From: Kiloniellaceae bacterium
Lineage (GTDB): Bacteria > Pseudomonadota > Alphaproteobacteria > Kiloniellales > J153
Assembly: GCA_021776115.1 (NCBI GenBank)
Contig: JAJFGN010000045.1
Location: forward strand, 83,025 to 147,024
Length of the DNA: 64,000 bases
Reading direction: 5' to 3'
In this document: positions 48,686 through 50,605 of the stretch, in pieces
Layout: every line of letters starts with the position of its first letter
Position numbering within the stretch: position 1 is the stretch's first letter
Program-made: the position numbers and the translations under genes
The notes under the pieces: generated by a model
Databases searched by the model: none
Seen by the model: the letters and a program-made list of their open reading frames with translations, nothing else
What the model was told of the DNA's origin: nothing

Positions 48686-50605
48686 TTAAAACCCGAACAT
48701 GTGGTCGAGGCTGAAGGCGGTTTCGCCCTTGATCAGGCCGTGATAGCCGAAGAGGCGGCAGGTGGTATCGCGGATCAGGACATAGCCGCCATTACCCGCG
48801 GCGGCGAGGTCGCCGGTCTCGAATATCTCCGAGGCCCGCCACAGCAGTGAGCCGCCGCAGGGAATCGCGATGTCGCGGGTGGCCACTTCCTGGCCCTTGG
48901 CATCGTGTAGGACCAGCGCCGTCCGGCTGGCCGCGTGCCAGGGGGTCGAAGCCGGGTAGATCAGGTGGCACAGGGTCTCCAAGGGCGCGTCGCCAAGGCG
49001 CAGGAACAGCCGGGTGCTCAGGCCCGGCGCCCGCCCGGCGTAGGACTGCGGCTCGCCCTTGTAGGTCAAAACGGTATTGAAGACATGGGCGCCGAAGCTG
49101 GTCTCGGCAACGTGGCCGGAGCGTTTGTCCTGGTATCGGAACAACCCGTGCAGCCAGCCGTCGGCGTCGCCGCCCTCCGCAAAATCGTAAGTTAGCTCCA
49201 TGTGGCCCCAGTCGCCCCGATCGTCCTGGCCCTGACCAAGACCCTCCGCGAGAAGAGCACCCGTCTCTAAGACTGTCGCATGGTTGCGTGGCAGGCAGCC
49301 GAGGGACTGGGACGCGACCTCCGCGCCCTTCGCGTCGTAAACCGCGATCCGGACCGGCAGGTTTTCCTGGCCGGTCGCCATGGGCGTGGGCAGGGCCAGG
49401 GAGCTAAAACGCCCCGGCGGCAATATCGGCGCGGGCAGGAGGTAGCCCTTGCCCATGAGGTTGGCGAGTTCCCGGATTCCCGAATCCGGCTTGAGGTCGC
49501 CACGCTCGACATTGGCATGGGCTATTCGGCCGCGTCCGTCGCGATCGAAAACCTCGTAACGGGGCCGGACAATATGCTTGCCCGCCCGGATCTCGATCTG
49601 TTGCGGCCAGCGCGCCTCCGGCAAGAGATCGCGGGTGTCCAGGGCCAGCAGGCCGTAACCGGGAACCTCGCGGTCGAGGCAGACAACCGCCTCATCGCCC
49701 ATGACGTTCAGGCCGACGGCGCCGGCGGGAATCGGCGCGGGATGGCTGTTTTGGACCCACAAAATGACGCGCTCATCGTCTTGCGGCGCGGGCAGGCCGG
49801 CATAGCGTTCGGCCGGCCAGGAGTTGGCGTCGTGGGTGCAGGATAAATCGGTCTCACTGTCGCCGTAGGTATCCAGGGCGTATTTCACGATGTCGTGCCC
49901 GGCGACGTGCAGGACATGGATAAACAGATTGCCGGTAAAGGCGGGCAGGGCGAAACGGCGCCGAACCTCGGCGCTATCGATCGTGATGGTGCCATTGGCG
50001 GCCGGCAGGGACTCACGCCATTCGGCGAGCGGGCTCCCGTCCCCGTCCATCAAGCGGCACCAGATCTCGGGATCCTTGGCCCCGTATCCGGACCAGTAGT
50101 TGGCGGTGACGAGGCGTGTGTGCCGGCCGTCCCGGTCGCGAAAAAGGACCAGATTCGTCGCGAAATTAAGGCCGCTCAGGTAGTCGCGCGGCGCCGTCAG
50201 CATGTCGTTCGGCAGGCGTAGGGACTCCAGGCCGCAGACCTCAGCGTCCGCCGGCACGAGGTGGCGGATATGATCGATCAAGCGCGCCGAGTCGAAGGCG
50301 ACCACGAGGACTGTGCGTGCGCTGGAGACCTTTAGGTCGGGTACCGGCTGCGCCGCATGGCCAAGCAAGGACCGGCCGATATCCGCCAGGTCCTGGACGA
50401 AGACGCCTGCGATTTCGAGCTCGCTGAGGTCGTACATCTCGGCCAGGGTTTGCGCGAGACCAAGCGGGTCGTAAATAGCGACGGGGCCGACGCGCAGCCG
50501 GTCTAGCAGCGCCGGAACCTTTCTTGCCGCCAGGGGATGGCCGACGGCCTTGAAAAAGGCGTTACCGCCCTTGACGTTCGAGAATGTCTCAATGCGCAGC
50601 GCCAT
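48686..50605 (-). CDS. Uncharacterised 639-aa protein (alpha/beta N-domain plus four related beta modules)
   Basis: Long ORF with host-like codon usage, 22 bp after the oxygenase gene; no signal peptide or TM. Confidence 0.75.
   Translation of the reverse strand: MALRIETFSNVKGGNAFFKAVGHPLAARKVPALLDRLRVGPVAIYDPLGLAQTLAEMYDLSELEIAGVFVQDLADIGRSLLGHAAQPVPDLKVSSARTVLVVAFDSARLIDHIRHLVPADAEVCGLESLRLPNDMLTAPRDYLSGLNFATNLVLFRDRDGRHTRLVTANYWSGYGAKDPEIWCRLMDGDGSPLAEWRESLPAANGTITIDSAEVRRRFALPAFTGNLFIHVLHVAGHDIVKYALDTYGDSETDLSCTHDANSWPAERYAGLPAPQDDERVILWVQNSHPAPIPAGAVGLNVMGDEAVVCLDREVPGYGLLALDTRDLLPEARWPQQIEIRAGKHIVRPRYEVFDRDGRGRIAHANVERGDLKPDSGIRELANLMGKGYLLPAPILPPGRFSSLALPTPMATGQENLPVRIAVYDAKGAEVASQSLGCLPRNHATVLETGALLAEGLGQGQDDRGDWGHMELTYDFAEGGDADGWLHGLFRYQDKRSGHVAETSFGAHVFNTVLTYKGEPQSYAGRAPGLSTRLFLRLGDAPLETLCHLIYPASTPWHAASRTALVLHDAKGQEVATRDIAIPCGGSLLWRASEIFETGDLAAAGNGGYVLIRDTTCRLFGYHGLIKGETAFSLDHMFGF

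Follow-up and report, generated by a model that had tools for sequence, protein, structure and literature searches.

The window analysed here is a 64,000-nucleotide stretch from a Kiloniellaceae bacterium (Alphaproteobacteria; assembly GCA_021776115.1, contig JAJFGN010000045.1, positions 83,025 to 147,024 of the forward strand), and its minus strand carries a gene for a 639-residue protein, hereafter the target, that shares its locus with a gene of the ELM1/DUF1022 family (PF06258), the family of the 3-deoxy-D-manno-oct-2-ulosonic acid (Kdo) transferase KdoT. The target gene travels with lipopolysaccharide (LPS) core genes and probably marks an undescribed step in the building of outer-membrane glycolipid. 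Its product consists of an N-terminal domain and four beta modules (R1 to R4), each of which closes at a histidine, and these parts map to the window as follows.

48686..50605, minus strand: target gene, encoding a 639-residue soluble protein of an uncharacterised conserved family (open reading frame and translation; stop codon 48686-48688)
50174..50605, minus strand: N-terminal alpha/beta domain, residues 1-144, Rossmann-like fold (AlphaFold2 models, Foldseek)
49808..50173, minus strand: beta module R1, residues 145-266, hairpin IWCRLMDGDGSPLAEW, last strand LSCTH258DAN
49832..49834, minus strand: codon of His258 (coordinates checked), kept in 138/138 family sequences
49445..49807, minus strand: beta module R2, residues 267-387, last strand RIAH363AN, predicted topology like that of R1, R3 and R4
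49517..49519, minus strand: codon of His363 (coordinates checked), kept in 136/138 sequences
49016..49444, minus strand: beta module R3, residues 388-530, hairpin RIAVYDAKGAEVAS, last strand ETSFGAH507VFN
49085..49087, minus strand: codon of His507 (coordinates checked), kept in 138/138 sequences
48689..49015, minus strand: beta module R4, residues 531-639, hairpin ALVLHDAKGQEVAT, last strand AFSLDH635MFGF, which reaches the C-terminus
48701..48703, minus strand: codon of His635 (coordinates checked), kept in 138/138 sequences

The gene is preceded by a purine-rich ribosome-binding stretch, with the stop of the upstream gene 22 nucleotides before it, and no transmembrane segment or signal peptide was found in the protein, whose maximum Kyte-Doolittle value over a 19-residue window is 1.34. 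An initial annotation of the window had described this product as an orphan built from four related beta modules behind a Rossmann-like N-domain, with a strand-D-x-x-G stretch in each module and a His motif at its end. All four stretches (residues 183-210, 298-323, 420-447 and 564-590) and all four motifs (SCTH258DAN, RIAH363ANV, FGAH507VF and SLDH635MF) are present as described. The label of orphan was mistaken, as the family comprises more than 4,900 homologue clusters at 90% identity (at least 4,925 at E <1e-3 among 8,000 scored candidates in a word-indexed search of 5.8 billion proteins) and 685 clusters in an exhaustive HMMER search of representatives at 50% identity. The best 120 homologue clusters are full length, at 630-690 residues and 63-84% identity across orders, and full-length members extend down to about 36-40% identity. 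Every source name attached to these homologues is "hypothetical" or "uncharacterized"; named members include proteins of Azospirillum lipoferum (WP_014248842.1), Tistlia consotensis (WP_085125860.1) and Sulfuriferula multivorans (WP_124705874.1). The inability of the initial annotation to assign a known family was borne out by searches of Pfam and NCBIfam, which returned no family for the target or for the 38 members of its alignment (sub-threshold FlgD_ig and RskA_C matches only), and by phmmer and profile hmmsearch runs against PDB sequences, with zero matches even at E 10. Literature searches by the accessions of family members and by the PDB codes of relatives of the neighbouring oxygenase returned nothing relevant.

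The family is present in 72 of 301 evenly sampled alphaproteobacterial genomes, nearly always in a single copy, and its carriers include genomes of 1.4-1.6 Mb. A pattern scan with one genome per species placed it in Kiloniellaceae, Pelagibius, Tistlia, Azospirillum, Nitrospirillum, Rhodocista, Inquilinus and Stellaceae among the Alphaproteobacteria, and in a few betaproteobacterial carriers, namely Sulfuriferula, Methylophilaceae and Thiobacillus. Among 401 sampled Pseudomonadota genomes, which include that of the window, there were zero matches outside the Alphaproteobacteria, and the betaproteobacterial carriers are therefore rare exceptions. Two alphaproteobacterial genomes hold the homologue in several frame-shifted or stop-containing pieces (G122:C6:1292917-1294920 and G260:C12:39762-41463); these look like decaying copies, and the gene therefore appears dispensable in some lineages.

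The full-length AlphaFold2 model, built from the 38-sequence alignment, has a mean predicted local distance difference test score (pLDDT) of 92.4 and a predicted template-modelling score (pTM) of 0.92. The four tandem modules proposed in the initial annotation are seen in this model, in which R1 to R4 share one order of elements by DSSP assignment (two strands, a hairpin with the D-x-x-G turn, a strand, a short helix and three strands) and H258, H363, H507 and H635 each stand at the end of their own module's last strand. Whether the modules are related was addressed by hhalign profile comparison with column-shuffled profiles as the null, using module boundaries taken from the model; the boundaries tried first gave weaker results, and self-BLAST of the target found no internal repeat. 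R3 and R4 match well above chance, with z-scores of 6.6 (none of 40 shuffles reaching the score) and 6.3 (none of 25). Moderate support links R1 to R3 (z 3.2 and 4.3) and to R4 (z 2.7 and 3.5), and in the run giving the higher values of 4.3 and 3.5 none of the 25 shuffles reached the observed scores. The alignments of these three pairs fall in the register that had been proposed for them, and the best alignment of R2 with R4 lies within one residue of it. Scores of R2 against the other modules fall within the range of the shuffles. At the level of sequence profiles R1, R3 and R4 thus share detectable ancestry, as the initial annotation had claimed for all four modules, while R2 scores no better than shuffled profiles and would be related to the others through its predicted topology alone. 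These comparisons are consistent with an origin of the four modules at least partly through internal duplication.

Conservation, counted over 138 non-identical family members, is concentrated in these modules, which contain all 58 positions conserved at 98% or more. H258, H507 and H635 are identical in all members and H363 in 98.6% of them, in agreement with the expectation that the module-closing histidines would be kept across homologues; two further histidines, H486 (99.3%) and H237 (98.6%), are close to invariant. Histidine is about four-fold enriched at the most conserved positions, which hold 6 of its 22 occurrences and 52 of the 617 other residues (Fisher p = 0.010). The remaining near-invariant residues are mostly polar or aromatic and include D259, N261, R347-Y350, N365, R368, W484, N510, E518, Y522 and D634. 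An invariant EPQSY...PGL loop directly follows the last strand of R3, and the C-terminal DHMFGF is kept to the final residue. Judged from the alignment, the pattern is compatible with a centre common to the modules that serves catalysis or the tight binding of a ligand, and a metal site of the kind envisaged in the initial annotation is plausible.

Comparison of the full model with the PDB and with the viral models of BFVD by Foldseek returned tandem beta-sandwich proteins only, at E values of about 1e-6 and a template-modelling (TM) score of about 0.1. Among them are the MG domains of complement C3 and alpha2-macroglobulin, and phage tail proteins with FN3, BACON or CBM domains. Like the target, the MG arrays and the immunoglobulin (Ig)/FN3 proteins of phage tails are strings of beta-sandwiches of about 100-140 residues, and they give the best matches, over about 550 columns with E values near 1e-6 and probabilities of 0.6-0.8; they differ from it in the relative arrangement of the domains, with a TM score of about 0.1 (at most 0.13) and 8-11% identity. 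Almost all of the top 50 PDB matches are non-enzymatic; GH2 glycosidases, transglutaminase 2 and PorU account for the few enzymes, and their TM scores are just as low. The likeness of the predicted structure is accordingly one of fold class and not of family. Membership in the alpha2-macroglobulin/MG family was rejected, since the target lacks a signal peptide, a thioester domain and a bait region and Pfam gave no A2M or MG match for it. Cupin, VOC, multicopper-oxidase and PHM-like identities, considered owing to a beta-alpha-beta-beta-beta element and the pattern of histidines, were rejected because Foldseek gave generic tandem sandwiches only. The strand-D-x-x-G-strand hairpin of the target is the h-x-h-x-D-x-x-G-x-x-V first hairpin that is the hallmark of the FlgD Ig-like domain (PF13860) and of prealbumin-like sandwiches, and the R4 hairpin (residues 557-579) gives a weak PF13860 match of 13.1 bits (E 0.096). 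Membership in PF13860 was likewise rejected, since this score compares with a gathering cut-off of 27 bits and 2 of 38 family members match. No metal-binding family was matched by sequence (Pfam, NCBIfam, PDB) or by fold (Foldseek).

These matches bear on an explanation in which the target is a non-catalytic adaptor, its sandwiches binding carbohydrate or lipid A or forming a scaffold for the nascent core or for the recruitment of KdoT and later glycosyltransferases, with the conserved residues serving binding and packing instead of catalysis. The structural matches are non-enzymatic tandem sandwiches, the searches of Pfam, NCBIfam and PDB profiles found no catalytic motif of a known family, and the genomic context described below would fit an adaptor and an enzyme equally. 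The conservation pattern argues the other way: it is very high and centred on polar residues, with the 58 near-invariant positions, the enrichment of histidine and clusters of Arg, Asp, Glu, Tyr and Trp, and the protein is of fixed length and conserved to its last residue. Binding modules tend to differ in sequence and in copy number, and a fixed length with conservation to the last residue is seen more typically in enzymes. An adaptor is therefore unlikely in our judgement, though it retains real weight.

The N-terminal domain is the least conserved part of the target, and all 58 of the positions kept at 98% or more lie outside it. A separate AlphaFold2 model of the domain (pLDDT 89) matches NAD(H)-binding domains of Rex, coenzyme A (CoA)-binding domains, that of succinyl-CoA synthetase among them, and KARI N-domains in Foldseek, with a best E value of 3e-4, probabilities up to 1.0 and TMq of 0.40-0.45, and the Rossmann-like assignment of the initial annotation is supported by these values. 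The beta-alpha-beta sandwich topology of the N-terminal 145 residues is common to Thermus Rex (3ikt and 1xcb), the N-terminal fragment of UDP-D-quinovosamine 4-dehydrogenase (3nkl) and the KARI N-domain. It is a distant likeness, at a TM score of about 0.45 and about 19% identity, and the target, in contrast to these Rex/CoA-binding domains, has no DNA-binding wing and no glycine-rich dinucleotide loop. A GxGxxG/A loop was sought after the first strand and is absent, its place being taken by V-A-I-Y-D-P-L-G-L-A, in which D46 and P47 are invariant in alignments of 25 and 43 sequences. A possible role of the domain is to bind a partner or a ligand of nucleotide type.

It is the genomic context, not covered by the initial annotation, that says most about the function of the target. 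Upstream of the target the window contains three genes of note.

50628..51311, minus strand: prolyl-4-hydroxylase (P4H)-like 2-oxoglutarate (2OG)-Fe(II) oxygenase of 227 residues (PF13640, E 3e-10), ending 22 nucleotides upstream of the target start codon
51308..52309, minus strand: ELM1/DUF1022 (PF06258) gene of glycosyltransferase (GT)-B type, of KdoT's family (PF06258 E 9e-108, full length)
52474..52989, plus strand: Lrp/AsnC regulator, divergently transcribed (Pfam), part of a conserved alphaproteobacterial backbone (greA-AsnC-ELM1-...-trxB-LysR)

The ELM1 gene overlaps the start of the oxygenase gene by 4 nucleotides. Synteny was examined in a sample of 80 species-level loci with 3-kb flanks. 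Of these loci, 59 have ELM1 upstream of the target and on its strand, and 44 have the oxygenase directly upstream, with both present in 40. Among target-less relatives, 12 of 20 loci keep the order greA-AsnC-ELM1-trxB-LysR, so that the AsnC regulator is not specific to the cassette, and in Alphaproteobacteria the target, with or without the oxygenase, fills the slot between ELM1 and trxB. The existence of this backbone without the target raises the explanation that the target is a coincidental neighbour, which would occupy the ELM1-trxB-lysR slot by descent only and have a function unrelated to LPS, for example in redox chemistry via thioredoxin reductase. The gene directly downstream of the target is trxB at 47 of 80 loci, in some with a few bases or fewer between the matches, and Azospirillum and Stellaceae keep the target-trxB pair with no ELM1 within 3 kb. 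Against a coincidence, PF06258 is found in 72 of 72 target-positive genomes, compared with 238 of 301 overall, and cassettes outside the Alphaproteobacteria keep ELM1 and mostly the oxygenase but drop trxB, lysR and AsnC. We consider coincidence improbable.

Such contexts outside the alphaproteobacterial backbone provide stronger evidence for the link to the LPS core than does backbone synteny. The order oxygenase-ELM1-target is found beside grpE-dnaK in Sulfuriferula (loci L070, L073 and L081) and Methylophilaceae (L095 and L099), and Thiobacillus (L104) has ELM1-target without the oxygenase. These betaproteobacterial cassettes have about 60% identity, and the alphaproteobacterial backbone genes are absent from them. 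Given that the sampled Pseudomonadota outside the Alphaproteobacteria lack the family, they suggest rare transfer between classes of the ELM1-oxygenase-target trio as a unit. Longer clusters follow in several genomes. A metagenome-assembled genome (MAG) labelled Competibacteraceae (L051) has genes for a SIS isomerase, an aminotransferase, ELM1, the target, a GT4 glycosyltransferase, a GT9 glycosyltransferase of heptosyltransferase type and an O-antigen-ligase-like protein. Both Methylophilaceae loci read 2OG oxygenase, ELM1, target and GT4, continuing in L095 with GT9 and a methyltransferase and ending in L099 inside the GT4 gene, and a gammaproteobacterial MAG (L072) has an ELM1 paralogue, ELM1, the oxygenase, the target, GT4 and a methyltransferase. 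The GT4 after the target is orthologous among the Methylophilaceae, the gammaproteobacterial MAG and the Competibacteraceae-labelled MAG (52-65% identity). In a small alphaproteobacterial genome (L019) the target is the first gene of an operon that also contains a methyltransferase gene and two GT4 genes, which are unrelated. These clusters outside the backbone are of LPS-core type. The tandem ELM1-family genes of the gammaproteobacterial MAG (L072:198-2066) are 26% and 56% identical to the ELM1 of the window and hint at two distinct ELM1-type transferase steps. After the cassette of Sulfuriferula sp. GW1 (L073:4842-6546) stand genes for a hemerythrin-domain protein and a member of the AurF-like di-iron N-oxygenase family.

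The oxygenase invites a different explanation, a system of protein modification resembling the Skp1 pathway, in which the oxygenase would hydroxylate proline and the GT-B protein ELM1 would glycosylate it, the target being the substrate or a third modifying enzyme. The nearest solved relatives of the oxygenase (9blq, 9ei6 and 4iw3) are of P4H type, it has weak matches to Pseudomonas PPHD and to HIF prolyl hydroxylase, and the target has invariant prolines in motifs such as GLPAP, LLPAP and LPTPM. The oxygenase is missing at 36 of 80 loci (45%), so the target does not need it, and the extended clusters carry genes of GT9 heptosyltransferase type and O-antigen-ligase-like genes, which are typical of LPS core loci. 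Moreover, the activity so far demonstrated for PF06258 enzymes is transfer of Kdo to the lipid A-core and not to proteins (PMC12856342). Taken with these observations, protein modification is a reading to which we give little credence.

Proteins of PF06258 had been listed as GtrOC proteins of unknown function in the outer-core locus of Acinetobacter (PMC10327509). KdoT, a member of the family, transfers a third Kdo from cytidine monophosphate-Kdo (CMP-Kdo) in vitro, and in Acinetobacter baumannii kdoT is followed by the gene of a GT4 enzyme, GnaT, a transferase of GlcNAcA; a Rickettsia homologue partly complements an A. baumannii kdoT deletion (PMC12856342). From family membership and this published complementation we infer the same activity for the alphaproteobacterial ELM1. 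The target locus resembles the KdoT-GnaT module in having an ELM1-family gene, here directly upstream of the target, and the relatives of the target outside the Alphaproteobacteria resemble it further in the GT4 gene directly downstream. The setting of the module, cytoplasmic assembly of the LPS inner core, is the one we propose for the target. The window differs in the absence of an adjacent GT4 gene, and the module described in A. baumannii has no counterpart of the 639-residue protein or of the 2OG oxygenase (PMC12856342). The cassette thus looks like the KdoT-GT4 logic with two additions, the 639-residue protein and, often, a P4H-like oxygenase.

The explanation we favour, at a probability that we judge evenly balanced, is that the target is a soluble cytoplasmic enzyme of LPS inner-core assembly or tailoring, partnered with the ELM1/KdoT-type Kdo transferase. 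It would be co-transcribed with the ELM1/KdoT-type gene and, in about half of the species, with the P4H-like 2OG-Fe(II) oxygenase, and would act with both proteins at the cytoplasmic face of the inner membrane on the Kdo-proximal inner core. Its step would presumably come after KdoT, on or beside the extra Kdo residue. In such an enzyme the beta part would form four tandem Ig/prealbumin-like beta-sandwich modules, and the near-invariant polar residues that close them would provide a candidate active centre, possibly holding a metal: H237, H258/D259/N261, R347-Y350, H363/N365/R368, W484/H486, H507/N510, E518/Y522 and D634/H635. The analysis shows the family, its architecture, its conservation and its gene linkage; enzymatic nature, substrate and any metal are what we infer here. 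A more specific version, which we regard as doubtful, makes the target a new enzyme class of four duplicated Ig/prealbumin-like sandwiches in which the topologically equivalent H258, H363, H507 and H635, with H237, H486, D259 and D634, would converge on one catalytic and probably metal-bearing centre that modifies, in a way new to the field, the Kdo added by KdoT, or its neighbour, in the LPS inner core of many free-living Alphaproteobacteria, those with 1.4-1.6 Mb genomes and plant-associated Azospirillum included.

Several observations weigh against an enzyme of the inner core. The members of the family are experimentally uncharacterised, and in Foldseek the model shows no likeness to any known enzyme fold, its matches being generic tandem sandwiches at a TM score of about 0.1. 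The oxygenase resembles protein prolyl hydroxylases and not the known Kdo hydroxylase family, and there is no GT4 or GT9 gene within the window. Because target-less relatives keep ELM1 beside trxB, the alphaproteobacterial order ELM1-target-trxB could be partly historical. ELM1 is found in 79% of the sampled alphaproteobacterial genomes and the target in 24%, and KdoT therefore does not need the target; at 21 of 80 loci ELM1 is absent within 3 kb of it. Finally, since their GT4 genes are orthologous, the cassettes outside the Alphaproteobacteria may descend from one transfer and would then not be fully independent.

Other genes of the window lie on the downstream side of the target, all on the minus strand. 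Between the target and trxB are a gene for a 546-residue protein (46903-48543), hydrophobic in its long N-terminal half and beta-rich in its C-terminal half, and one for a Cys-rich protein of 251 residues (46135-46890) that has hydrophobic segments. Pfam and NCBIfam gave no match for either. Among all fetched loci these two genes recur only in the closest relative (L037, 85-94% identity), and the pair looks like a lineage-specific insertion in a conserved slot. The trxB reading frame (44957-46087, 376 residues as listed) has about 45-50 N-terminal residues more than the homologues of 321-322 residues in related loci, and its true start is probably an internal ATG (MSEVRHSKVLILGSG...). About 5 kb from the cassette, at 42614-43543, is a gene for a 309-residue protein of the Asp/Asn beta-hydroxylase family (PF05118, E 1.6e-46). 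This family includes the lipid A acyl-chain hydroxylase LpxO, and the protein could be a second oxygenase near the cassette that tailors envelope lipid.

The LPS inner core is commonly thought to be well mapped. Recognition of ELM1-family proteins as Kdo transferases is a recent finding that reopens this picture, and the target points to a missing step or factor of core assembly: about one in four alphaproteobacterial genomes has it next to that transferase, the two move together between classes, and it is conserved to its last residue yet lacks a name, a domain assignment and a structural relative. Were the target to act only as an adaptor, it would be a new accessory factor for core assembly of the KdoT type. 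If it is an enzyme, its active site, put together from four beta-sandwich repeats, would represent a new type of catalytic architecture, and the family would provide a handle on differences in envelope glycolipids among abundant environmental and plant-associated Alphaproteobacteria.

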